Source: Macrostomum lignano (Eukaryota). Taken from it: a DNA stretch of 64,000 bases. This document shows, piece after piece, positions 29,846 to 50,432 of the stretch. Under the pieces are notes generated by a model. That model searched no databases and was not told the origin of the DNA. It was given only the letters and a program-made list of their open reading frames with translations. The stretch spans positions 62,001 through 126,000 of the forward strand of contig NIVC01001075.1 of NCBI GenBank assembly GCA_002269645.1. The letters are read 5' to 3'. Every line of letters starts with the position of its first letter. Within the stretch, counting starts at the first letter, position 1. The position numbers and the translations under genes are program-made.

Positions 29846-29957
29846 TGCAACATAAGCGGCTGCTATCGCGAAATCAAACACTAAAATGTGATTGGAAAAA
29901 GTCCAATATCAAGAACTAGGAATTCTAGACTTGACTACATATTTTTATTCAACAGAA

Positions 29958-31487
29958 ATGAACAACGATAGTAATAATAATAGCCAATGGACAAGGCCTC
30001 GGGACATGATAGTGGACACGGCCGCGTTAACGGGCATCGCACTAATCGGCGTATTCGGCAACGCATTAATCATCATGTGCGTCATCGTTCACAAGAAGCT
30101 AAAGAATGTCACATCGCTATTCGTAGCCAATTTGGCCGGAGCGGACCTGTTATTAGCTGGCTTAGTAACGCCCGGCTCAATGCGCCTGCTGTGGCGTCAG
30201 CGCGGCCTGCCATTTAGCCCGCTGTGCCAGCTATTCGGCGCGGCGCTCTACTTCAGCTGCGCCGCTGTGGTAAATTTTAGCGCACTGATAGTGCTAACTC
30301 GCTATATAGTAATCTGCAAGCCGCACCTCGTTGTTGGCCTATTTAGGCACAAACGAGCCGCTTGCTGGTGCATCGCATTATGGAGCTACACTGTACTGCA
30401 GGTAGTAGCGCCTTCGGCTGGTCAGTTATTCCAGTACGCCTACAATCCGGCTATCGAGGTGTGCCATTTGAACTATACGAAACACCCGGTGGCAATAGCC
30501 ATATACATCAACTGTTTCTGCTTTCTGCCCTGTTTGACTGCCTGCATTGTTTGCTACGCGCTAATATTCTACGCTTTGCGTCGGAACAGGCGAAAGCTGA
30601 CTAGGCACATGTCGTCAACAATGAGCGCAAAATTTCTTGCCAAGAAGTTGACTAGAGAGCGTCGAGCAACTCTGCCACTTTTTGTATCGTTATTGTCATT
30701 CTTTGTACACTGGCTACCCGTGATGATCATGTTTGGTTTGGATCCAAACTTTGAAAAATACAATCCGCAGATCTACCGCTATTTAGGCGTGTTTAGCATA
30801 GCCAGCGCCTGCGACAATTGGATAATCTACGGCCTGTTGAATAAGAACTTTGCCAACGGCTATAAATCTGTATTAAGCTACTGCTGCTGCTGTCAGTCTA
30901 GCAACGATGGCGGCCCAACAGCGCCGCAAGAGTCGATCAAAATGCGCCGAGCACCTGGTAGAGGCGGCGGACGTCGGCAGTCTAGTAGCGGACGGGTGCA
31001 CTGTCAGCACCTGTCGGCTGGCAGTTTGCTGCGCAACAGTCAGCGATTGCAGCAGCATCGCTACAGGCAGAGCAACATTGCTACCGTAGCTGTGGCAAAC
31101 GCCGCTCCGCTAGTAAGCGAATTAGAAGACTACAGCGACTTGGAGAGCTGGAACAGCGGCGGCAGGCGGTTTCCAGTTCAACTGCTGGAAGCCTGCCACG
31201 CCTGTAACCGAGAAGACAACTATGGAAATCAAGTGTCAATTAATGAGAACATGGCGAATCACGATTACAAGGACGACGAGGACGACTACGAAAGCGAAAC
31301 GGACGATATTGATCGGATCAATGAGAAGTGCTGCGGCGCAAGGCACCGAGCTGAGGCTCTGCAGCAGCAGCAGCAACAAAGACCATCATCTGGCGACCAG
31401 ACGAATACACCAACGCGTCAATCGCTTGTTGTTGTCCTGGCGGTGCGAGACGGCTGCGAGAATGACGGGAAAATTGCCCAGCTGTGA
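29958..31487 (+). CDS. Intronless class A (rhodopsin-like) GPCR, melatonin/Tre1/Moody-like orphan, 509 aa
   Basis: ATG follows the acceptor-like TTTTATTCAACAG. Seven hydrophobic segments; GN in TM1, NLAGADL in TM2, TRY, CY, HWLP, NWIIY; long C-terminal tail. Confidence 0.9.
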   Translation: MNNDSNNNSQWTRPRDMIVDTAALTGIALIGVFGNALIIMCVIVHKKLKNVTSLFVANLAGADLLLAGLVTPGSMRLLWRQRGLPFSPLCQLFGAALYFSCAAVVNFSALIVLTRYIVICKPHLVVGLFRHKRAACWCIALWSYTVLQVVAPSAGQLFQYAYNPAIEVCHLNYTKHPVAIAIYINCFCFLPCLTACIVCYALIFYALRRNRRKLTRHMSSTMSAKFLAKKLTRERRATLPLFVSLLSFFVHWLPVMIMFGLDPNFEKYNPQIYRYLGVFSIASACDNWIIYGLLNKNFANGYKSVLSYCCCCQSSNDGGPTAPQESIKMRRAPGRGGGRRQSSSGRVHCQHLSAGSLLRNSQRLQQHRYRQSNIATVAVANAAPLVSELEDYSDLESWNSGGRRFPVQLLEACHACNREDNYGNQVSINENMANHDYKDDEDDYESETDDIDRINEKCCGARHRAEALQQQQQQRPSSGDQTNTPTRQSLVVVLAVRDGCENDGKIAQL

Positions 31488-35870: not shown

Positions 35871-37646
35871 CAAGATAAATTGAACTATGAAATTGAAACT
35901 TTGAAATTGTTTAATTCTGTCACTCTTTTGAGCCTTAGTTTGACAATATATAGTTTTCTAAGTTCTAAGTTATTTTTTAATATTAAAAAAGTATAAAAAA
36001 CCTACTTTAATCATTTTATAATATAATATCATATTATAACTATTTTATTTCAAATGAAAAAATAATTTAGCAAACAAAAGAGGAAAATTACTTGCCTATT
36101 TGACTAGCAAAAGAATTAGATATAAGCTAGCTAATTACTAGAGCTAGAGTACAACCAGTGGTGGGACTGAGGCGCGAATTCGCGCCTGGCGCAAATTTCA
36201 GTAAAGATGGTGCGAATACACGATTTTTCAGGTGTGGCGCAGATTTTGAGGCGTGAATGGCGCGGATTTATATTTAGTGTGTGCGGTTTATGCTGCAACT
36301 TCATTTTCTTTCAAGTGTGGCTCTGGGCTTGTATCGAGCAAGATGTATGAACGGTTGCATTCTTAGCTTCCCTACAGAACATAAATATAACTCCACTAGC
36401 TCTGTTTTTTTGCACAAAATATAGTGTGGAGACTCGCTAGGAGGTAACTACAAGGTAGGTAGGTATGTAGGCATATGTAGAGACAGGAAGAAGGCTTCTA
36501 GCATAGATCTTAGAGCTTTGTTGAATCCTTTCAGCGGCGCTCTGCGCCAAGTTAGACGCTATTGCTTGCTAACAGGCCGGCCATGTCAATGGCCCGCCGC
36601 GCTGTGGTACTACATCCGGTCCCGCTCGAGGTGCCAGCATCCAGCTGAAGATCCCGATTGTCGCTGACATCGGACATCTGAAGGTCATCTGTAGTTCACC
36701 TGAACTTGTAGCCTGAAGAACCTGAAGAGTCTGAAGATCACTTGAAGGGCCTGAAGTATGCCTGAAGATCACTTGAAGGGCCTGAAATATGCCTGAAGTT
36801 CACCTGAAGATTGCCTGACTAATTCGGAATCTATGGACTTAGGGACCTTCAATCTACGACGTTAGAATAATTGACCGGAGTATTAATGACGGAATTGCAA
36901 CATGTCTATGACACCTAAACTCTCTCTGCATTGTCTCTAGAGGTTATTCATTTATTAACTTTTATTAGGATTGTGACAGAGCAGCTCTTGAAGAATTGTG
37001 TCTAGCAATCTTAATTGGTGGCAGCTACTACCGCTCTTTGATTGATAGCAGTGATCAGTAAGTGAGACCTAGTGGGTAAGTTTGGACACCAGTGAGCCTT
37101 AGACATTAGCCATGTACCACTGCTCAGAATAGGGCAACAGTCAGAGAGACCATCTCGGGGAACAGTAGAGTGGGAATTAATAAGCCCTACGGAGCAGAGC
37201 ATCTCATTGGAGACAGTCGGTTGGATTGAAGCCGACCAGACCAGAGTCATAACAATAGTATCAAGTAGTATGCACCATAGTCAATAGTAATAATCCAAAA
37301 CCATAGCTATCTTGGTCAATGACTAGACTACATTCCCGAAGATGTTCTAGGACTGTGGTAGTGGCACAGTAGTTTGACGCTTTAAGCAACCTCTACGGAC
37401 CATCTGTATTGTACACAAGTTTATAGCCTATAGGGATGCGGGCTATGTGGCTCATTAGTATCAGGAGTCGTACTGTGGATTCTAACAGTAATTCCTAGAT
37501 TGTAGAGCGTAGGCACAGACAGGCTTTAATATCGCTTTACGATCTTTTGGACTATTTAGTTATTTTTCTGTGTTTATCAACTCCCCCATATTGTTTTTCA
37601 GCTGCAAAAAAGCAATCAAGGTGCGGTTTTAAACAAACAATACGCA

Positions 37647-39300
37647 ATGGCAAAGAATGTTCGGTGGAATGATGCATGGTTGCTGGAAAAAGATGAAAAC
37701 GGAGATTCTATCGGCCAATGGGCTCGTAAGAAAGGCGATTTAAAAGCTGCCTGCACATGGTGCAAAACTGATTTCTTTTTCTACAGTGGTGTTACGAATT
37801 TCAAGAGTCATTCTATGTCCGGAAAGCATCGGGCAGTGTCCATGGCACATAAAAGCAGCAGCTTGCTGAGAGAGTTGCTAGTAGGTGCAAGGCCAAGTGG
37901 ACTCAGTGGAGATAAGCCAAACAACCTGGATCTTGGACATGGAGGTGGCGGTGACTCGGCAAGGACGGCTGAAATTAGATGTGTTGCCAGAATTGTGCTG
38001 AAAAACCGGAGTTTCGAGTTGGAGGACGACATAGTAGAGGATCTGTGTGCTATTTGTCCAGACTCCAAGGTTCCTCCTGCAATGCAGCTGCACTGATCCA
38101 AGATTTCGTATCTTGTGACGCATGGCTTATTTCCCTATTTGAAGGACGTAGTGCTGGACGATATCAAGACATCCGGCTACTTCTCTCTGCAACTTGACGA
38201 GGCAAACAAGAAAGGAAAGTATCTTGGCATAGTACTGCGCTACGTGTCTAACCAGTGTGAAAACCAGCAGCAGCTTAAGGTGGAGACCGTCTGCATCGAC
38301 TTGCCTTCACTTTCCTCAACCACTGCAGAGGACATCGCATCTGCTGTAACGGACACGATTGCCAAATGTGGCCTGGACAAGTCAAACTGTGTGGGACTGA
38401 TGACCGACAGCTGCAACACCATGCATGGAGCCAAAAGCGGTATGGTAGTGCGTCTGCACAAGGTGCTACCCAACATAATCGACATAGGCGGATACAGCTT
38501 GCATCATATTCATAATGCAGCTAGTTACGCTTGCGACGCTTCTGAGTTGGGTATCCGCGTGGAAACATTGGTCCGCAATGTTTACTGCCATTTCAATTCT
38601 CCACCACAGACTGTGATAAGCTGCATGCTATCGCCACTGAGTTTGACAAAATTAAAAAGCTTGTCTTCCTTTGGCCTATTGAAACTAGATGGCTTCAGCT
38701 CCTGTCTGTTGTGCAGCGCGTGCTACGACTTCTTCTGGAGCAAAGTTGCCACTGCTGGCAACCGCCCTCTACTGATGCGCATAGCACGAGTGTTAGCTGT
38801 CTTGCCTCATGGCAATGCTGAAGTTGAGCGTATTTTTAGTAACTTAAACAATGTTGTGACGAAAAAACGCTCCAGCCTGGGACCGCAGACCATCAAGGCA
38901 CTCGTTGTTTCGCGGTCCTGCCTACAGACAAACATTGGTCAGCTGCTACACTGCCAGTCTCCTTGAGGCTGAAGAATTTGTGCGCCAGTGCTGCTGCTGC
39001 ATATCGGCGACGACTGGAAGAGGAGAAGGCTGCGGACGAACAGGGGAAGCAAGAGGAGCTCGAGAAGCGAGTTTTGATGGAGCTGCAAAATGAGAAGAGT
39101 GCCAGCAAGGTGTATGGTGACTTGGAAAAGTCTATCAATGCGACAGCAGATGCGATCAAGCAGAAGCAGAAACAGCGAGATGATGCTCAGCGGCTGTTGT
39201 CAGAGTCTTCAAAGGTCAAGGAAGCAAGTGACCAGGAGCTCAAAGAACTACGGCAGCAATAAGAGAAGCTGCAACGAAAGAAGATGAAGGAGTCTGAGAA
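37647..39300 (+). pseudogene. Defective hAT transposase
   Basis: BED finger (CTWC..HSMSGKH), FSLQLDE, LMTDSCNTM, HHIHNA, ETRWL (shifted frame), dimerisation motif LPHGNAEVERIFS. In-frame TGA at 38094, frameshifts, and an apparent internal deletion near 38725. Confidence 0.88.
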
Positions 39301-40105
39301 ACTGGTGCAAAGCATTCTCAAGTGACGGGCTGTTGAGCAGTTGGTGTCAACTCCTCTGCCTGCAGGTATTATGCAGAAAAAGTTTAGACAATTGATGTGC
39401 ACTTCATGCAATCATGCTCCATGTGACTCCATGCTACTGTGTTTAGAACTGGTTATCACAGTGAATTTAATGCGCATATAAGTAGGAAAAAAATTTCTTA
39501 TCATCTTATTCGGTGGTATGTAAAAGATGGAGCGGATCGAATCTACATTGGATCTAGGGATAAGCGAAATTTAGTGTTAAAGTCGATTTTTTTCTCAAAA
39601 GTCAAATAAGCAAGAAAGCAGATGCCATTTTATGTAAAGAACTGTTAAGTGCCAATACGAAGAATGTTTTTAAATATTTGTTATTATACCAGGGTACTTT
39701 TGACTGATCTGTGGTCCCATTACTTTCAATGTACGGATGGATCCGTATTCTATACCAATCTGATCTGCTTTGTCTTTTACATACAACCTCTTATTCTGCT
39801 TCTTTTGCTACGAGCCTGAACCACGAATACTGAAACTTCTGAAAGTGAGTGAGAGGACTTGTGTTTCACGAAAAAAGTATATCTACTTTGCAACAATGAC
39901 AAATAAACGTGATACTCTGTCAAAACTTCATTAAAAGTGTCCACTTCATTCATTAGAGTAAATTCGTAAGATTGTAATTTACGATATTAAAAAATATTTA
40001 TAATAGACCATTAATTAACTATACGCTCGTAACAAGGGACCCCAAGGCTGCATAAAAGGAAATTTAGTAGTGCGGGGCACTGGGCAGAAAATTTCGGATG
40101 GCATG

Positions 40106-40672
40106 TGTAGTAGGGCATTATTTTTAGGAACGGGAAATTTTGTGGGTTTAAATATGCTTTTACCCTACTATCAGTAGTTTCAACCCGGGGAAATAATTAG
40201 CGCGGGGGTAAGTGGATAAAATCGGGGTTCCTTTAGAAATACAGAGCAGTTGGGCTCTTGGGAAAGAAAGCCTTTCGTTGGAGTGTCTTCTCCTGTTTAA
40301 CTCAGAGAGTTCACGCAGAAGTGGTAAGAAAGGGAAATATAAGGGTTAGGCTTGCACAGAGGAGTCTTGCCTCTAAAATACTGGGAGTCTTGCCCAAAGC
40401 ACTATAGCGGGAATAAGGAGTTAATGTAAAACAAAACTAACTTTTGTACCGTAATTTACTTTTATTAAATATTTTTTTGTGTTAACTAAGTCTAAATTGG
40501 TGTCCTGACTCAGTTCTTTAAAACTACAGCTAGAATTAGGGAACAGCAGGAACCTGGTGGCAGCGAAACTACCAAATCTCAAATCAGTGCAGCAGACAAT
40601 AATCCACTAGTAAAATCCTTAGCAGCAAATAGAAAACCAGTAGCCGAAACCGCAGGTACCACGACTTGTCCA
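40106..40672 (+). repeat. 5' LTR (567 bp)
   Basis: TGTAGTAGGG...CTTGTCCA, duplicated at 49865-50432. Confidence 0.97.
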
Positions 40673-40674
40673 AT

Positions 40675-40693
40675 TGGTGGCAGCGGTGGGATT
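40675..40693 (+). promoter_or_regulatory. Primer-binding site complementary to the 3' end of tRNA-Leu
   Basis: TGGTGGCAGCGGTGGGATT, 2 nt after the LTR. Confidence 0.9.
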
Positions 40694-41128
40694 AGAATAC
40701 CCGAGAAGCGCAAATACATTAGACTGGAGCTTAGGATTAGTAAGGGATTAACGGATTAACTCCTATGTGCTGAAATTAGAACTAAAACTAACACAAAATT
40801 ATTAATTAGGTTCTAAATTAGAGATTAATGTACATAGTCAGTTGGTCTAAGATTGTCTAATCACAGATTAACGGATTAACGGATTAGGAACGGATTAACG
40901 CTCCTGAAAGGAATTCTAACTTAGTTTCTTCGCTAGAAGATTAGTAAGGTCTCAATTAAGACCAGAAGTAAGGCGGAAGTAATAAAACTAGAGTCACTGC
41001 TGTTTTATTAACTAAAGTCTTACCATTAGGCAATTTAGCAGCTAAATTCGGAGTCTTGCCAATTTAACTGACCAAAATTATTAAACCAGAAGCGTTAATT
41101 CTAGAATCCAACCTAAACTTAAACTAAT

Positions 41129-44100
41129 ATGGAAGCTAATGACGTAGTAGAAGCACTGGCTGAAGGCATTAGAGACAGGCTAGACATTAGGAAACATATT
41201 AGGATCCAAAAGTACACGCCTAATCAGGATATAGACGTGTGGATTCAAGCTTTTGAGCAGAGGTGTATCGCAGATGAGATACTAGCAGCTGAGTGGATGA
41301 ATGAGCTACTGTCTAACTTAGATGTTCAGTCAGCGTTCGCTATCGTGACAAGGCTAAATTTAGATCCTAATCTAGAATATGCAGAATTTAAGGATAGGCT
41401 AATCGAGCAGTTTACGCATGTAGGTAGTGCTCAAGAAGCTAGGGAAGAGTTCCGTAGTAGGTTCCAGTGCAAAACTGAAAGCACTGATGACTACGCTGAG
41501 AAGCTAACAGAGCTACCTTGGTAGCATGCAGGGCGTTTCCCCATCTAACTGCTGGAACTGCTGAGACAGGAAGGTGGTGGAACAATTTATTAGAGGTGTT
41601 AGGGTTGCTCCAGAGACTAGAGAGAAGCTACTGCTAGCTCAGGTAAACTCGCTTCAAGAGACACGTCGAGTCTTGCGACGTATCGAAATGGCGTACGCTA
41701 TGTCTCGCCGAGGTAGAGACCCGCAGCAGTGTAAGGCAACTGGAGGAGACGAGGCTGAGAACGGCTTGAAGGAATTAGTCCGCAAACAGGGTGAGGCGCT
41801 AGAGAATCAGCAGAAGGTGCTTCAGGAGTTACTCCGACACCATCAGAATGTTGAGCAAAAGGTCAAGCAGCAGCAGCAACCGTCAGGTCAGCAGCAGCAA
41901 GGCCAGAATCAGCAGAGGCGTCCACCAGTGACGTGCAACAGATGTGGCAAGCTAGGTCACTTAGCTAAGAATTGTAAACAGCCACATCCGCAGAACCAGC
42001 ATAGGTACCCGGCTCAGCAGCAGATGCATAGCAGAAGGATGCATAGCAGCAGCAGAAGGCTAAGATCCACCGAGGACCAGCTGCTGAGGCTGACGCAAGC
42101 GATGGAAGACGCATTCCAGATGGGGGAGAAAGGAGTGCTGGCCCTTTTTGACTTTGAGAGGGCCTTCGATAAAGTGTGGAGACATGGGCTGCTTTGGAAG
42201 ATGCTTGAGCAAGGCCTGAGCACGAAGTTGGTGAAGTGGGTTAGAAGTTAGCTGGAAAACCGGATGGCCAGAGTGAGGTATCAGGACAGAGATAGCGCAG
42301 GCGTGGTTATGAGGCAGGGGCTGCCGCAGGGATCGGTGCTGTCGCCGATCTTGTTTATCATCTTTATTAACGATCTGCTGCAGAGGATTGAGGGAATGCC
42401 GAACATGGAGGTGAGTGGCTTCGCGGATGACCTACGCATGCTGGTCGTGTAGCAAAGACGAGGCGGAAGCAGCCAGCAGCATCAAACAGGCGGTCGGTGT
42501 GGTGCAGGAGTGGAGTGCGCAATGGAGGCTACCAATAGCGGCCAAGAAATGTACGCTTACCTTGTTTGTGCTGAGTAGCAAGTGCAAAGAGCCGAAGCAG
42601 ATCAGCATCAGAATCAACGGAGAAGAAATGGAGTGGGTGTCTCACCCCATGTTCCTAGGAGTGACCTACGATAGGAGGCTGAGTTTTGCAAAGCACGTGC
42701 AAGAGGTGGCTAAAGCTTGTAAAAGCAGATTACAGATAATGAGACGGCTGGCCGGAAGTGACTGGGGATGGAGAAGTGGGTTCCTCAGGCAGACGTACGT
42801 GGCCCTCATCGAGAGTAAAATTATGTATGGGGCCACGGCATGGATGCCATGGATCAGCAGAGCGTGCTGGCACAAGCTTGAGGTGACGCAGCGCAGAGCA
42901 ACCAGAATAATCGGTGGGCTGCTCGCCACGACCCCCATCGACGGAGTCAGGGAAGAGTCGGGAACGGATGAGCTGGAGGCGCTGGCAAGATGGCGGGTTG
43001 TGAGGAAGATGGATAGGCTGATGAGAGCGAAAGAGGGTTCGATTAGATGGAGGCTTGCAACCGAAGGACCGGTCAGTAGGCTCAGAAGGGACAGCTGGAT
43101 GACCTGGGCGCGCAGATACCTGCCAGAATGGGAAGTCGACCTGCCGAGGCTGTCGGAGGCGGAAAAGGAACCACCATGGATCAAGCTACGACACGTGGTA
43201 TTCGATGACGAGGGAGGAAGGCCAGACACGAAGGAGGAATGCAGGAGGATGGGAGAGAGCAGGATAAGAGCGGCTTGCGACGGAGCGGACATATTGATTT
43301 TCACGGATGGTTCGGTTGATAAGTGAGGCAAAGGAGGGGGAAGCGTGGTGGTGACGAAGTACGATAACGGCGCGGTGGTCGAGAGGCAAATGGTGGCCGG
43401 CGGACAGCTCGCGTCCTCGATGCAGGCGGAGCTGTACGCGTTGAAGGAGGCAATCAGATGGCTGGCGATTAAAAACAACTGGCACAAAGCTGTGATTGCG
43501 ACAGACAGCAAAAGCGGGATCCAATCTATAAAAAAGACCAGCAAGAACTCGATCGTCTGCAGCATTAGAAAAGCGCTGAGCGAGATGGAAGGGCGGGAGA
43601 TGGTGATGCTGTGGATACCGAGCCACTGCGGGATCGTAGGGAACGAAGTGGCGGACGAATGGGCTAATCGAGCGGTCAGGGAAGTGAGCAATGAAGGAAT
43701 TGGAGTCATGGCGAGCACGATGGCGAGGATGGCGAGGAGGCGGAGTAGAAGGAAGGTGTGGAGGCACGAGAGGATGAGGGCAACGTACGGCGGCTCGGAG
43801 GGACCAAGGAAAGAACCGGAGTTCACGAGCAGGAAGGAGGAGGTTAGTTTTAGAAGATGGCGTACGGGACACTCGCTGGAGCTGGCAGCGTTTAGAAAGA
43901 GAATCGGGCTGCAGCAGGATGGAAATTGCAGGCAGTGTGGCATGGAGGAGGAGACCATCGAGCACGTGGTGGCCTGCCCGGTTCTGGACAGCTGCTGGAG
44001 GGGATGGAGTGGTGGAAGAGGAAACCACCGGAAAGCAGCTAGACATCTACAACAACAACAACAATAACGCAGCAGATGCAGCCGCAGTATCCGCAGCCAC

Positions 44101-44172
44101 ATTACCCTCAGAAGCAGAATTCGGGAAACGGAGTAGACGGAAGCGTCGGAGGCAACGCTTTCCAGCAGTAGA
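41129..44172 (+). pseudogene. gag: Gypsy gag with a CCHC knuckle, broken by two frameshifts and a LINE insertion
   Basis: Capsid-like helices and CNRCGKLGHLAKNC. Removing 42029-44080 restores the frame QQQMQPQYPQ...NSGNG. Confidence 0.88.
42029..44068 (+). mobile_element. 5'-truncated I-group (Ingi/Nimb-like) LINE with RT and RNase H, inserted in gag
   Basis: RSTEDQ, FDFERAFD, GLPQGSVLSP, FADD, LAGSDWG; RNase H IFTDGS..AELYAL..TDS..WIPSHCGIVGNEVAD; CxxC..H..C; (ACA)n tail; 12-bp TSD GCAGCAGATGCA at 42017-42028 and 44069-44080. Confidence 0.93.
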
Positions 44173-47100
44173 TCCCTCACAGTCTGTAGCCTCACAACCT
44201 GTAAATAGCAGCGATACTTTTTCTGTAACTAGTGAATTGAATTCTTCAGTGTATAACAGTACTCATGCGTAAACATTTAATCAATCATTTAATCAGCCAA
44301 ACATTTATTCTCAGCACTTTTCAAACGCACCACAGCAACAACCTTATTCTAGCAAGCAGCAGCTAAAACAACCAAAAATAATTGAACAAACTAAAAAGCA
44401 AAGTTACGATCCGTACATCACTGGCAGCATTTTAAATAAGGAAATAGTTTATCTATTAGACACTGGCAGTAAAAGAAATATCTTAGGACGCGAAACCTGG
44501 AAGCATCTTTTCACTGGCAAGAATAGGCATCTAATTAAGCATTGGGACAATAGAATTGTTTCCTTTATGGAAGACCCTATTCCAATTAAAGGTTTCGTAG
44601 TTATTAAGGCAACATTTGGCGATTTCGAGGAAGAATTTGAGTTTCTCTTATGTGACGCAGATGTAGACAATGTAATAGGTGTGACGTTTGTCCAAAAATA
44701 TTGTACTACTATTGACTTCGATGCAGGAATGCTGACCATGAAACAAGGAACTAGAATTCCGCTTCGATCAACCAGAGCTAAGCCTCAGGTTAGGAGAATC
44801 TATGTCGCAGAAAAGACGACAGTTCCAGCCAATAGTTCAGGATTAGTCAAAGTCAGATTAGCAGCAGGTAGTGAAACTAATTTTGGAGTGCCATCAGTTG
44901 TTGAGCCACTCAGATCAGGATTGAAGACTAGAGCAGAGAAAGTAACCGTAGTGCCAAGTTTAGTAACTCTAAGACAAGGGGAAGCTTATTTAGAAGTAAT
45001 TAACACCAGTTCACAGGAAGCTAGAGTACCAGCATCAGCATTAGTTGGGATGGCTAAACCACTCTTAGCTAGCGAGCTTAACTATCTGAAGGAACAGCCA
45101 GAAGAAGAGCAGAATAAGAGCATGCAGTCTTGCGGAAGCAGAGAAAAGATCAGTCAGGTACAGGAGAAGTCAGAAGACTGGATTAGTGAAATCAACATAG
45201 GAACTGAACTGACTCAGGAACAGAGACAGAAGGTGATCGAGGTCGTCAAGGAACATTCAGCAGCTTTCTCGCAGCACGAGTTAGACTTAGGCAGAACGCA
45301 TTTAGTCACACATGAAATTATCTTGAAGGATAACAACCCAGTTCAGATACCAGCTAGGAAGATTCCACCTCATTGGATTAAGGAGGTAGATGAGCAGTTA
45401 GATCTCATGTTGGCTAGAGGCATCATTAGGCCTAGTTACTCGCAGTACTCGACTCCATTAGTCATAGTACCTAAGAAAGACGGTTCGCTGAGATTAGTTA
45501 ACGTTCGACTATCGAGCACTAAACAATAAATCGGAGTACTTTCCGTATCCAATAACTAATATCAATGAAACATTTTCATGTCTCCATGGAGCCAGTCAAT
45601 TTTCTACGTTAGATTTATTTTCGGGATATTATCAGATAGCTCTTAGGGAAGAAGATAAGTGCAAGACTAGCTTTCCAACTTTACATCGAGGCTCGTTTGA
45701 GTACGAAGTATTGCCAATGGGATTGCAAGGAGCCCCAGGAACTTTTCAAAGGTGCATGAACTTAGTTCTTAAGGACATTGCACAGAAGTTCGCCATAGCT
45801 TACTTAGACATTGTAATAGTTTATAGTGCAGACTTTGAATCGCATTTAGAACACCTAAAAGAAGTGCTCAAGAGACTAATACAAGCTAACATGAAACTAA
45901 AGGCTAAGAAATGTCACCTTTTCAAATCAGAATTACAATATCTAGGACACGTCATAGGCAAATCAGGAATTAAGAGAGATGCGTCGAAATTAGAATCAAT
46001 TAGGAACTGGCCGAAACCTAAATCTGTGACAGAGCTTCGAAGTTTTCTCGGACTCTGTAATTACTATAGAAAATTCGTTAGAGATTTTGCCGAGGTAGCA
46101 GCACCACTCTGTGAGTTAACTAAGAAGAACATCAAATGTATCCAGGACAAATGGACCAGGATTCATGATGAATGCTTCGAATTGTTGAAGGAACGGATGT
46201 GTTCCGAAGAAGTGCTTGCTTACCCAGAGTTCAATACAGACCCCCAAGTTTATTTTGTGTTAGACACTGATGCATCAGATGTCAGAATTGGGGCGGTCTT
46301 GGGTCAAGTTCAGAGCGACGGCATGGAAGGACCGATCGCGTATTATAGTCGGAGGATGAGGCAGTCAGAAACTGGATGTCCGATTACGAGGAAGGAGCTT
46401 CTAGCGATTGTTGACTCGCTGAAGTACTTTAGATTTTGCCTCGTAGGAAAACATTTTAAGGTGCGCACTGATCACAATGCCCTAACCTGGTTGCTTCGCC
46501 AAACCGAACAGACAGGCATTTTGGGTCGTTGGATCGAAAGACTTTCCGGATTTGATTTTGAGATGGAGCATGGGAGTGGCCCTGAACATGTGAGTGCTGA
46601 CGCTCTGTCCGGGATCCCTGGTCCTCAGCCGGAAGAGATGTCCCCACATGCCAGGTCGCTAAGCTGTAGGGCAACTGTGAATACAGACCCAGCATCAGCT
46701 TGTACTGTCAGCTCAGGCAATTCCGCGTTCGCTGAAACCTGTAGCTCGAGCAATGGAGTTCCGTCATGCTGTTCGTCACAAGACACTGTCACGAACCGAC
46801 ACAATACTCCGATCTTTAGTAGCAGTAGGCTAGACAATAGACAGGGACAGGAGCCTAAAACCGGAAATCCGCCTGCATGCAATGCCCTGCTCAGTGACTA
46901 TCTCCGTAGCCCAGTTCGCCGTGACCAATTGATCGCAGCACAGCTAGCCGATCCGGCGGTAGGCTTTGTTAGAAAATTAATTGAGAATGACTCGCCTAAA
47001 CCGACATTTCAAGAACGACTAGAGTTAACCCACGACTGTAGGAACCTCTTAGGTTACTACGAGTTGCTCAGAATTGAGGACGGTGTACTCAAAGTGGACT

Positions 47101-48689
47101 TATCTATGGGGCAGACTGATCCAAAGGTAGTGTTGCCCAAGTCTCTGGATAGTGAAGTCTTTCACCAATTCCATGATTCACCGTTAGCGGGACACCTAGG
47201 TCGAGATAAAACTTATCAGAGAATTAAAATTCGATTTTGGAGGCCAGGATTAGCAACAGCAGTTGAACGCTACGTAGCCAAATGTAAATCATGCCTAGAA
47301 AGCAAAACTAGACGAAGAATTAAGGCACCAATTCAGAACTATCCTGTAGTCGAACTGTTCGGTAGATTGCACATAGATCTAATAGGACCTATTGGCCAAA
47401 CTAGCAAATCAGGAAACAAGTATGTGCTTTCAGTCATAGACAGCACTAGCAAATTTCCATTCGCATTCGCAATTAGGAATCAGAAGGCTAAAACAGTTAT
47501 CAAAATTCTACAAGAACGAGTTTTCGCTGATTTTGGGATTCCACAATGGATTCACACAGACCAGGGAACACAGTTCACTGGTAGGGCCTTTAAGAAATTT
47601 TTAGACCTCTATGGCATTAGACACACTCGAACAACTAGTTATCATCCGCAGAGCAATGGCTTAGTAGAAAACCTTAATAAGCAGATTAAATCAATTCTCA
47701 CCTGTTTACTGGAGAAGGAGCATTCCAACTGGGACGTTCTGTTGCCAGGTTGCATAACAGCTCTGAGAACCAGCACGCACACTGCCACAGGATTTAGTCC
47801 GCACTATTTAGTCTTTGGACGAGAGGCCAGAATGCCCTGTGACAATGAGTTGAACGAGCCAAAGCAGTTTCAGGACCTGCCATCTTATGTCCAGGAACAT
47901 CAGCAGAATCTGCAGGAAGGCCAAGAACTAGCAAGAAAGAGATTAAAATTAGTGCAACAAAACCGTGAGCAGGAGTACTCTAATAAGCCTAAGCCGAAAA
48001 CATTGCCTGTAGGAAGCTTAGTATTTATCAATAATCCAGTAATTGCTAACACAGAAGCTAACAAATTTTACAGAAAACAAAATGCAGTTTACGAAATTGT
48101 AGAACAATTATCAGAAGTAGTCTTTAAGATCAGACCAGTCACCAAAAATAAGAAGGCTAGAAAGGAAGAACTTATTATGCATAGGGATAATTTACTGAAA
48201 GTACCGCAAGCAGATTATCAGGAAGAAGAAGCTAGTACTAAGCCAAAAGAGCAGAGGAAACAATACAATAGGGAACAGTTAGCCAATAGCCAGCCGAATG
48301 TGTACAATGACTCAGAAAGTGAAGACGAGTACGAAGACGCAGTGCAGTTTATGCCAGTGCAACATCAAAATAATGAGCAGTTTATGCCAGTGCAACATCA
48401 AAATAATGAGCAGTTTATGCCAGTGCAAAATCAAAATAATGTGCAGTTAGTGCCAGATCAACAAGTGCAGCATCCGAATAATAATCAAAATAATTTAGTA
48501 GGTGTACAAGGAGTTATGCCAGTGCAATTAAGTAATAACAATAATCTAGGGATTAATTTAGAAGCTAGGCCAGCTAGAGAGCGTCATGCTCCAGATAGAT
48601 TAACTGTCAGGCCAAACCAGAAAAGTTATGTGCAGAGGATAGCGGAGTTGTTTAACCCATTTAACCTCTTGCAGCCAACATCTCAATAA
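44123..48689 (+). pseudogene. pol: Gypsy pol (protease, RT, RNase H, integrase), defective
   Basis: LLDTGS; DGSLRL/DYRALN frameshift near 45505; YLDI in place of YLDD; LDTDAS..ELLAI; integrase H-H-C-C, IDLIGP, TDQG, GLVENLN; TAA at 44270. Confidence 0.93.
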
Positions 48690-48691
48690 CT

Positions 48692-49360
48692 ATGGTCGAC
48701 GCCCCAATCCGCGTCTATCCAAAAAAGCGAATCTATGGCCAACAAGGAAAACAGGCAGCTTCAGAAAATGAACCCCCAAGAATTAGGGCTGTTCAAGAAG
48801 TAAGCGATAGTGTCGCGACAAGCGGTAAAAAGCGGAAATTAGAGCAACCGGAAGAGAGCGGTGAGCCCAAAGGAAGACTGGTCGTGGACATAGACTTGGA
48901 AGAGTTGGAAAGGGAGACGGAAAGAGAGGAAGAAGCGTTCCGAGAGGAGATGACCAGATTCATGGAAGAGGTGCGACAGTATGAGGAGCCAGCCGAGCCG
49001 CAAGTAGACCTAGAGGAGCAAAAGAGGAAGTTTTGACGCTGCCGCCGGGCCCTCAAGAAGTACATACTAAGGACGGGTAAGACCGGTATGTTCGAAACCA
49101 AATTACCCGAAGCCTACGCGCGTTTCTTAACGACAGCGACCAAGAAGGAGGCAATTAAGTGCTACGAAATAGCCTGTACCTATTGCCTCCAGTATGCGGA
49201 AAGTAACGCACGCGGCCCCTTCAGTATGAGCGTCACCATGGAGCAACTAGAGTTCTTGGCGGGAAAATTCGACCCGGAGCGCCAAATGATCCCGGTCAAC
49301 GGCTTATTGTATGCATCGGCGCAAAACACTAATAATCTTCGGCCTGTACACGACATCTAA
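48692..49360 (+). CDS. Third ORF of the Gypsy element (~222 codons, one in-frame TGA at 49034), unknown function, not env-like
   Basis: ORFs 48692..49036 and 49088..49360 share a frame with only one TGA between them. The ATG is 2 nt after the pol TAA, and the ORF is followed by an AT-rich 3' UTR. Confidence 0.65.
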
Positions 49361-49854
49361 CTAGAGTAATCGAACTGCATTTTTCTATATATTGGCTATT
49401 TTTTTTACCATCTCTTGGGACAAATTGCATTAAATCGCTGCCTTGCTTTAATCATAGCACTTCCTTTTTGACATAAGGATCTGTCCACATTTTACGTCGC
49501 GTGCAATTTTCTATTTTTGTTATGTCTACACGTTATTCTTAATAGTACCAACATTACTCAACCCGATGCTAATAAGATACACACCACTTATTCTTATATA
49601 TTGTTGTTGTGTTGCATTTATTTTGTTTTAGCAATATAGCAATATGCAACGTAATATCAATAATTCATTATATATCCTGCATTGTACTCTACTTGTCTAG
49701 GAATTCATGTTTACGCATTACATTTTCATATTCATAATAGTTGTTATATTCAGTACATCGCTGATAAGCGCACTAATACTTATTATGTAACTAAAATTTT
49801 GTTAATAAATATAATTATCAATGTACAAAAGGGGGTTTTGCACATTTGTTTAGC

Positions 49855-49864
49855 GAGGGGGAGG
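49855..49864 (+). other. Polypurine tract
   Basis: GAGGGGGAGG immediately before the 3' LTR. Confidence 0.9.
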
Positions 49865-50432
49865 TGTAGTAGGGCATTATTTTTAGGAATGGGAAATTTT
49901 GTGGGTCTAAATATGCTTTTACCCTACTATCAGTAGTTTCAACCCGGGGAAATAATTAGCGCGGGGGTAAGTGGATAAAATCGGGGTTCCTTTAGAAATA
50001 CAGAGCAGTTGGGCTCTTGGGAAAGAAAGCCTTTCGTTGGAGTGTCTTCTCCTGTTTAACTCAGAGAGTTCACGCAGAAGTGGTAAGAAAGGGAAATATA
50101 AGGGTTAGGCTTGCACAGAGGAGTCTTGCCTCTAAAATACTGGGAGTCTTGCCCAAAGCACTATAGCGGGAATAAGGAGTTAATGTAAAACAAAACTAAC
50201 TTTTGTACCGTAATTTACTTTTATTAAATATTTTTTTTGTGTTAACTAAGTCTAAATTGGTGTCCTGACTCAGTTCTTTAAAACTACAGCTAGAATTAGG
50301 GAACAGCAGGAACCTGGTGGCAGCGAAACTACCAAATCTCAAATCAGTGCAGCAGACAATAATCCACTAGTAAAATCCTTAGCAGCAAATAGAAAACCAG
50401 TAGCCGAAACCGCAGGTACCACGACTTGTCCA
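49865..50432 (+). repeat. 3' LTR (568 bp)
   Basis: Near-identical to the 5' LTR; followed by the TSD CATG. Confidence 0.97.

Follow-up and report, generated by a model that had tools for sequence, protein, structure and literature searches.

The stretch of Macrostomum lignano DNA analysed here, called the window, is 64,000 nucleotides long (contig NIVC01001075.1, positions 62,001 to 126,000, forward strand). It contains a complete Gypsy element at 40106-50432 (window positions throughout), which encloses a third open reading frame, ORF3. The Ty3/Gypsy hallmarks are all present (TG...CA LTRs, target duplication, primer-binding site and polypurine tract), and the domain order is gag followed by PR-RT-RNase H-integrase, in which RT, RNase H and integrase are assigned by family and the protease by its DTG motif only. 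The closest named Pol is from Macrostomum lignano, with 97% identity over the RT region. When RT sequences are grouped, the ORF3 family falls together with a set of sister families, described below, against 10 unlabelled database sequences. The features of the window copy are as follows.

40102-40105: target duplication CATG, 4 bp, ahead of the 5′ LTR; a second CATG stands directly after the 3′ LTR
40106-40672, plus strand: 5′ LTR (TG...CA), 566 of 569 aligned bases identical to the 3′ LTR
40675-40692, plus strand: primer-binding site, TGGTGGCAGCGGTGGGAT, with an identical opening in the sister families
41129-44171, plus strand: gag, broken, with a CCHC knuckle (PF03732, weak; PF00098)
42029-44068, plus strand: nested non-LTR retrotransposon fragment (RT, RNase H, zf-RVT), absent from the family's standard form
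44123-44129, plus strand: GGGAAAC slippery heptamer, a likely -1 frameshift site from gag into pol
44199-47701, minus strand: GT-AG intron of an antisense RNA, from contig joints (donor CAG/GTGAGA, acceptor TTTACAG/G)
44273-48689, plus strand: pol, with protease motif, RT, RNase H, integrase and a Q/N-rich tail
48651-48674, plus strand: acceptor-like site in the pol tail (TTTAAC, pyrimidine run, TTGCAG), 17 nt 5′ of the ORF3 ATG; a putative splice acceptor
48692-49360, plus strand: ORF3, 222 codons with an internal TGA at 49034-49036; N-terminal AP.R, basic and ENEPP motifs, acidic helix, linker and helical domain
49007-49357, plus strand: ORF3 C-terminal domain, predicted to have five helices with a basic first helix (modelled on a sibling, pLDDT 91.5, pTM 0.83)
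49361-49851, plus strand: AT-rich 3′ UTR, swapped along with ORF3; AATAAA at 49804-49809
49852-49864, plus strand: polypurine tract
49865-50432, plus strand: 3′ LTR, followed by CATG

The window copy is defective throughout, with gag and pol broken and a LINE fragment within gag. In addition to being split by this fragment, gag carries a stop and a frameshift near 41520-41565, and pol carries one stop (44270-44272) and one frameshift (about 45500). Contigs of sequencing runs bypass the LINE fragment, with joints from 42028 to 44069/44078. The fragment and the identical gag breaks are common to the window copy and the element at locus L094, that is, to at least two elements at different sites, and because the LTRs of the window copy are 99.5% identical, the defective, LINE-bearing form was likely mobilised in trans. 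The slippery heptamer GGGAAAC is found at the corresponding site in 8 of 8 siblings and in 10 of 12 sister elements. The primer-binding site TGGTGGCAGCGGTGGGAT is, we presume, tRNA-Leu-like. Within the pol tail, at about 48340-48530, there are variable-number repeats of TATGCCAGTGCA (MPVQ) in both subfamilies of the element, in a tail that is otherwise poorly conserved; these repeats could be a DNA element upstream of ORF3. Elsewhere in the window, and judged by eye, a 531-codon frame without introns resembles a rhodopsin-type GPCR (29892-31487, plus strand), and broken pieces of a hAT-like transposase lie upstream of the element (37560-39262, plus strand).

The first-pass annotation read positions 48692-49360 as one 222-codon frame interrupted by a single TGA and starting 2 nt after the pol stop. 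Both readings are correct for the window copy: the sole TGA is codon 115 (49034-49036), and the pol stop TAA (48687-48689) and the ORF3 ATG (48692) form the sequence TAActATG. The window ORF3 is a dead allele. Its TGA is private, being seen in no other copy, and its frame is shorter by 20 in-frame codons than those of its closest siblings (222 versus 242 codons).

Beyond the window, searching the genome at the protein level for the C-terminal half of ORF3 gave 78 matches among 86 candidates. An uninterrupted ORF3 frame of 240-285 amino acids is present in 27 of the 40 ten-kb loci fetched, the choice of which partly favoured long frames, and in 19 of 23 two-LTR copies, the window copy counted. 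In a first, less selected set, ORF3 is intact in 11 of the 29 loci having the pol tail, and about half of the older loci are broken. The copies have 21 distinct 3′ flanks and therefore represent independent insertions. Broken copies that share a lesion mostly have common flanks too and are duplicates of one insertion, which indicates that broken ORF3 alleles have not spread. Of the 11 pairs for which dN/dS could be estimated (Nei-Gojobori method), 10 have values of 0.05-0.34, for the most part 0.05-0.2, and the remaining pair, whose members are nearly identical, has 0.52; in seven further pairs the synonymous sites are saturated. The check suggested by the first-pass annotation, namely whether siblings are intact with dN/dS below 1, is thus answered in the affirmative by the two-LTR copies and by the dN/dS values. 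ORF3 is a real, selected, multi-copy gene of a young Gypsy family.

After invariant short motifs at its N-terminus (AP.R.Y..K.IY and ENE.P), the ORF3 protein has basic clusters and then an acidic amphipathic helix, which a variable linker joins to a domain of 110 residues; the basic clusters and acidic helix reported initially are indeed present. Its charge alternates, with a basic N-terminus, an acidic middle (net -15 to -25) and a basic domain. In the AlphaFold model of a sibling, the C-terminal domain is predicted with high confidence as five helices, and the remainder, the acidic helix excepted, is modelled as disordered. The position of ORF3 is that of an env gene, on the sense strand between pol and the 3′ LTR, and this position, together with the broken frames of the window copy and of about half of the older loci, might suggest a decayed env or a neutral remnant. 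That idea is refuted by the strong purifying selection and by hydropathy, and can hardly be correct: the N-terminus is hydrophilic and the highest 19-residue hydropathy is only 0.19-0.65 in 10 of 10 intact sibling proteins, no signal peptide or transmembrane segment is found in any of 10 ORF3 types, there are 0-1 N-glycosylation sites, and the model is that of an all-helical, soluble protein. The initial conclusion that ORF3 is not env therefore holds.

The family was not recognised at first reading, and no sequence or fold match of known function has emerged since. Homologues outside the genome numbered 0 of 435 and 0 of 7996 candidates (near-length proteins only), viral and metagenome contigs gave 0 of 33 and 0 of 8, and the ESM Atlas yielded nothing. 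Seven profile matches among 1.84 billion representatives were rejected, being short pieces of long repeat proteins (WD40, fn3, DUF7507); these large searches used an ORF3 profile built without the sister families. Pfam gave nothing under E 0.02, PDB sequences nothing under E 0.2, and Foldseek no match at E 0.001 in PDB or BFVD. In a wide structural alignment the best row is a cullin repeat (Z 6.3, rmsd 4.5, 110 aligned), with three cullin repeats among the top 8; helical bundles reach such a score as background in this tool, and unrelated rows score equally. The lack of a fold match for a predicted structure does not make the fold new. There is no sign of an alpha/beta catalytic domain of the DEDDy or GDSL type, as ORF3 models as all-helical and has no such Pfam family. 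No description of ORF3 was found among the publications searched. A survey of M. lignano LTR elements does not use the terms ORF, envelope, splicing or antisense in the part of its text and the one supplement that were searched for them (PMC12801592), and the family may already bear a name in the rest of that survey or in the same group's earlier classification. The first-pass description of ORF3 as a nuclear accessory protein stands insofar as the protein is soluble, non-env, of an unrecognised family and plausibly nuclear.

Probable remote relatives of ORF3 are found in sister Gypsy families, whose Pol is about 63% identical in RT to that of the ORF3 family. These elements also have a third ORF after pol (loci L121-L172), of 285-535 amino acids and with at least 150 genomic matches, which encodes an acidic-hydrophobic N-terminus, a P/Q-rich middle and a conserved C-domain of 110 amino acids; 0 of 10 are on record as exact proteins. 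In profile alignment the C-domains of the sisters and of ORF3 align end to end over 99 columns (P 1.2e-4, probability 55%), compared with 15 columns for a reversed control. The sister profile scores 11.6-12.9 bits on type-a ORF3s against a maximum of 8.3 in 2000 shuffles, and falls inside the shuffle range on 21 of 27 ORF3s. The motif [DE]AP[LE]R is also common to both. On the basis of profiles, motif and position, remote homology is probable, although not proven, and ORF3 would then be an old gene of the lineage. The sisters differ in how the gene is placed. Their third ORF starts 200-535 nt past the pol stop, and the upstream spacer contains CCAAT in 13 of 24 cases (1.1 expected) and TATA in 12 of 24 (3.6 expected), so that the sister gene appears to be a separate transcription unit which keeps an internal promoter of its own. 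No acceptor is apparent near the sister ATG (3 of 24 cases, against a background of 29%).

Sequence variation in the ORF3 family is unevenly distributed, ORF3 and the 3′ UTR behaving as a cassette that can be exchanged. There are two subfamilies, A and B, and within each the gag-pol region is 94-100% identical per 300-nt bin. In both subfamilies, identity between types falls to 47-81% only over ORF3 and the 3′ UTR, and rises again at U3. For example, the element at L069 has a Pol 98% identical to those of L062/L063 (pS 0.06-0.07), while their ORF3s are 62-64% identical (pS 0.80-0.85), and L080 combines a subfamily-A pol with a third deep ORF3 type, about 40% identical. At a threshold of 85% there are 9 C-domain types, and at least six are found in elements with LTR pairs 99.3-100% identical, which indicates that at least six types moved recently. 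Old versions of ORF3 therefore appear to ride on one young backbone, and types would have been exchanged through template switching at the pol tail and the polypurine tract. Selection for rare types would explain such a pattern, and so, equally well, would gag-pol and U3 sweeping across older copies.

ORF3 segments recombine internally (the N-terminus against the rest), and in subfamily B a given C-domain type does not always go with the same 3′ UTR type. The deep ORF3 clade agrees with the U3 type in 51 of 53 loci, as simple linkage also predicts, and a single U3 is common to ORF3 types that are only 62-70% identical. The UTR types are otherwise unalignable, and most have an AATAAA about 50-60 nt 5′ of the polypurine tract; an RNA terminating there would be without R and hence uncopiable.

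Several rearranged loci were noted in the course of this comparison. Comparison of L069 with L076 over pol codons 300-800, for subfamilies A and B, gives 96-99% identity in RT/RNase H, where pS is about 0.2, but saturated synonymous sites in integrase (pS 0.7-0.8), which argues that the RT region was recently swapped between the subfamilies. At L082 the gag-pol is degraded, only 40-58% identical to the family, and has a subfamily-B ORF3 directly after it, an arrangement produced either by nested insertion or by transfer between distant families. At L077 and L078 no more than 61 nt of pol tail precede an intact ORF3, UTR and LTR, and a hAT-like transposase lies ahead on the opposite strand. Finally, an ORF of 169-181 amino acids adjoins pieces of a Polinton-type DNA polymerase (L099:6547-7056, oriented; L025, L026 and L080), and in deleted copies is fused to the pol tail 5′ of ORF3; judged by eye, it may be PC4-like.

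How ORF3 is expressed was addressed at the junction with pol. The first-pass annotation treated the TAActATG coupling as a defining feature and proposed either termination-reinitiation or a spliced RNA. The coupling is not conserved: young copies have 2, 3 or 4 nt between the pol stop and the ATG, the full range in the family is 1-7 nt, and the sisters have their 200-535 nt. The gap occurs in all three frames, which rules out a read-through fusion of ORF3 to Pol. By the standards of TURBS-type signals, the start codon is near the upstream stop (1-7 nt), but the motif 1 core UGGGA of viral reinitiation signals (PMC5972666, in part) is lacking, occurring in 0 of 34 junction variants within 60 nt upstream and nowhere in the last 100 nt of five sequences. 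The unconserved gap, the distant sister starts and the lack of UGGGA together disfavour reinitiation. Moreover, because Pol depends on a -1 frameshift at GGGAAAC, few ribosomes should reach the pol stop. We consider reinitiation unlikely, if still worth keeping in view.

The spliced-RNA option fits the junction better. A CAG lies 13-18 nt upstream of the ORF3 ATG, behind TTTAAC and a pyrimidine run, in 33 of 34 junction variants (from a script that pre-selected starts having an AAYCC word upstream). The site fits the trans-splice acceptor motif of the host, [T/C]TNCAG, and trans-splicing in this host involves 30% of genes and 85% of stem-cell genes (PMC8629364, in part). Against splicing, the same CAG doubles as a Gln codon in a pol tail conserved as protein, and the sisters have no comparable site. 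ORF3 is likely to be translated from its own mRNA, and we give about even odds that this mRNA would be formed by cis-splicing or spliced-leader trans-splicing at the CAG. Contigs of runs X5 and X10, which are RNA by guess, cross the pol/ORF3 junction unspliced, on an unknown strand. Neither a sense joint nor a 5′ loose end was seen at the candidate acceptor among those listed for seven runs (the best 15 of 17 joints; 24 of 232 and 8 of 10 loose ends), and contigs cannot prove absence. A joint from 40568 to 48547 in run X2 was rejected because it is likely to be an alignment error caused by PBS-like words, and a strong conserved donor was not found in the 5′ leader of subfamily A. An internal promoter inside the pol tail seems a rather unlikely source of the mRNA: CCAAT/TATA pairs are not conserved upstream of ORF3 in its own family, in which the spacer of the sisters is missing. 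A hairpin ahead of the polypurine tract, spotted by eye, was not recovered by consensus folding.

The sole splice seen in contigs of the family is antisense. Two runs guessed to be RNA and taken from separate studies, X1 and X5, have contigs with the joint of the 44199-47701 intron, and X2 has a loose end there; the skip is not in the DNA-like run X15, and no such deletion exists in 40 genomic loci (L061-L100). The family thus produces an antisense RNA that is spliced and covers gag and the end of pol. There is no long frame across the joint (at most about 100 codons from a Met), and the RNA is possibly a piRNA source. Given this RNA, coverage of ORF3 by RNA sequences is no evidence of sense transcription.

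What, then, might ORF3 do? Our main reading, to which we give a probability of roughly 0.45, is that ORF3 is an accessory gene encoding a nuclear regulator that promotes the element's own expression, either as a transactivator or as an anti-silencing factor. We infer this from the anatomy of the protein: basic clusters, an acidic-hydrophobic segment (internal in ORF3, N-terminal in the sisters), P/Q-rich linkers and a basic folded domain. The basic clusters would carry the protein into the nucleus, the five-helix domain would bind nucleic acid or chromatin, and the acidic amphipathic helix and short N-terminal motifs would recruit host factors. The agreement between ORF3 clade and U3 type is what one would expect of a transactivator and its promoter, and is equally predicted by linkage. 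A published rule for 39-residue activation tiles (PMC10550315, in part; equation 1), which is reported to find only one subclass of activators, was matched by 0 of 10 ORF3s, 4 of 24 sister proteins and none of 4 controls from gag/pol. With looser thresholds, 6 of 12 ORF3s and 12 of 24 sisters matched, and so did pol. A cognate target in the 3′ UTR is argued against by the unpaired C-domain and UTR types of subfamily B. Of the two roles proposed in the first-pass annotation, anti-silencing may still apply, while integration targeting has become less likely because ORF3 types 62% identical share one integrase.

There are several other scenarios, two of which concern RNA and translation. Like CERV or Rev, ORF3 could bind the full-length RNA of the element and enable its export despite the splice acceptor. 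The acceptor-like site in the genomic RNA, the arginine-rich N-terminus and the basic first helix of ORF3 are compatible with this, and there is a precedent in Cer1, in which CERV, the product of a spliced mRNA, is needed for export (PMC10309623, in part). However, the sisters appear to use an internal promoter and would have no intron to retain, no Cys-rich motif is conserved across the wider family, and an RNA element common to near-identical gag-pol regions would leave the many ORF3 types without a reason; we regard an export role as improbable. A second scenario is that ORF3 is made by reinitiation after Pol and works with Gag or integrase as a particle or targeting factor. The gap of 1-7 nt is kept in every variant, the low-complexity pol tail is open up to the junction, and contigs span it unspliced. 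Set against these points are the 0 of 34 count for UGGGA and the absence of stop-start overlap, the few ribosomes expected at the stop of a frameshift-dependent Pol, and the uncoupled sisters. Because ORF3 swaps freely while Gag and integrase remain unchanged, a particle or targeting partner is argued against, and this combination is decidedly improbable.

The remaining alternatives invoke conflict with the host or among the elements themselves. As an antagonist of host defence, ORF3 might be a decoy or a ubiquitin-ligase adaptor that diversified to escape or cover host alleles, in keeping with a disordered region in which short motifs (AP.R.Y, ENE.P) are strictly kept, and with the three cullin repeats among the top structural rows. 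The cullin score is nevertheless helical-bundle background, and dN/dS indicates purifying rather than positive selection, and we regard this role as improbable. ORF3 could alternatively define self-recognition groups, through copy-number control, interference or a poison-antidote system, in which elements of one type would be restricted by, or immune to, that type, so that rare types spread. The co-mobility of numerous old types on a single backbone, within each subfamily, is what negative frequency-dependent selection would leave behind. Yet a recent sweep of gag-pol and U3 by recombination yields the same picture without selection on type, and the internal recombination of ORF3 also counts against the scenario; the odds against it are long. 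Returning to the nuclear regulator, its most elaborate form would be a type-specific transactivator or anti-silencing protein whose ancient versions are kept by frequency-dependent selection, exchanged in env-like fashion and expressed via the spliced-leader trans-splicing of the host, which would release a second mRNA from the genomic RNA. We regard this form as improbable.

In animals, hardly any accessory genes are known by which retrotransposons act on themselves or on the host, and CERV of C. elegans Cer1 is the one worked-out case we found. CERV is an orphan nuclear accessory protein of an invertebrate Gypsy element, made from a sub-genomic mRNA, and in these respects resembles our model for ORF3; it differs in being large, with G-like and Cys-loop domains and a demonstrated role in export (PMC10309623, in part). 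No likeness between the proteins was found in the fold and PDB sequence searches. Foamy virus Tas and other retroviral transactivators are encoded by a downstream ORF with an internal promoter, have an acidic segment and act on the element's own promoters, and are like our working model of ORF3 in layout only. VANC of the Arabidopsis VANDAL transposons is also an accessory protein that diverges between related elements, and it raises the possibility of action on the element's own non-coding DNA. However, VANC belongs to a plant DNA transposon and acts on DNA methylation, with cognate tandem targets that are demonstrated (PMC5735166, in part). For ORF3 no cognate target of this type was found, and C-domain and UTR types are unpaired in subfamily B.

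Third ORFs in the same position have been described in other hosts. In Oikopleura, related families differ in how the third ORF of Tor3b/4b is transcribed, either by splicing from the LTR or from an internal promoter that lies in pol or after it. The separate transcription unit of this ORF resembles the promoter arrangement of our sister families; unlike ORF3, it encodes a membrane glycoprotein (PMC4402516, in part). Plant LTR retrotransposons have sense additional ORFs that, like ORF3, are conserved, lie between pol and the 3′ LTR and have no assigned role, but most contain transmembrane segments, and the hosts and lineages are different (PMC7264820, in part). Bdelloid LTR retrotransposons have non-env third ORFs of DEDDy exonuclease, GDSL esterase and coiled-coil types, usually as separate, spliced transcription units, and these are similarly family-specific, modular, located between pol and the 3′ LTR and swapped between elements. 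The bdelloid ORFs are captured enzymes or membrane proteins, in contrast to the orphan helical domain of ORF3, and the variation of ORF3 is among old versions of one gene on one backbone (PMC5408684, in part).

Finally, we note that non-env third ORFs are, as a kind, already known from bdelloids, plants and Cer1 (PMC5408684, PMC7264820 and PMC10309623, each in part). New with respect to the literature searched, as far as the consulted parts of these sources extend, are the ORF3 protein family, its spread over several families of one genome, and the pattern of many types on one backbone. ORF3 represents a new protein family with a compact domain, found in hundreds of elements of several families in one genetically tractable flatworm, and the contrast of a uniform gag-pol with third genes that are so deeply divided suggests an arms race at ORF3. 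A trans-spliced retrotransposon mRNA, if true, would add to the arrangements known from these systems a new way of expressing a downstream ORF.
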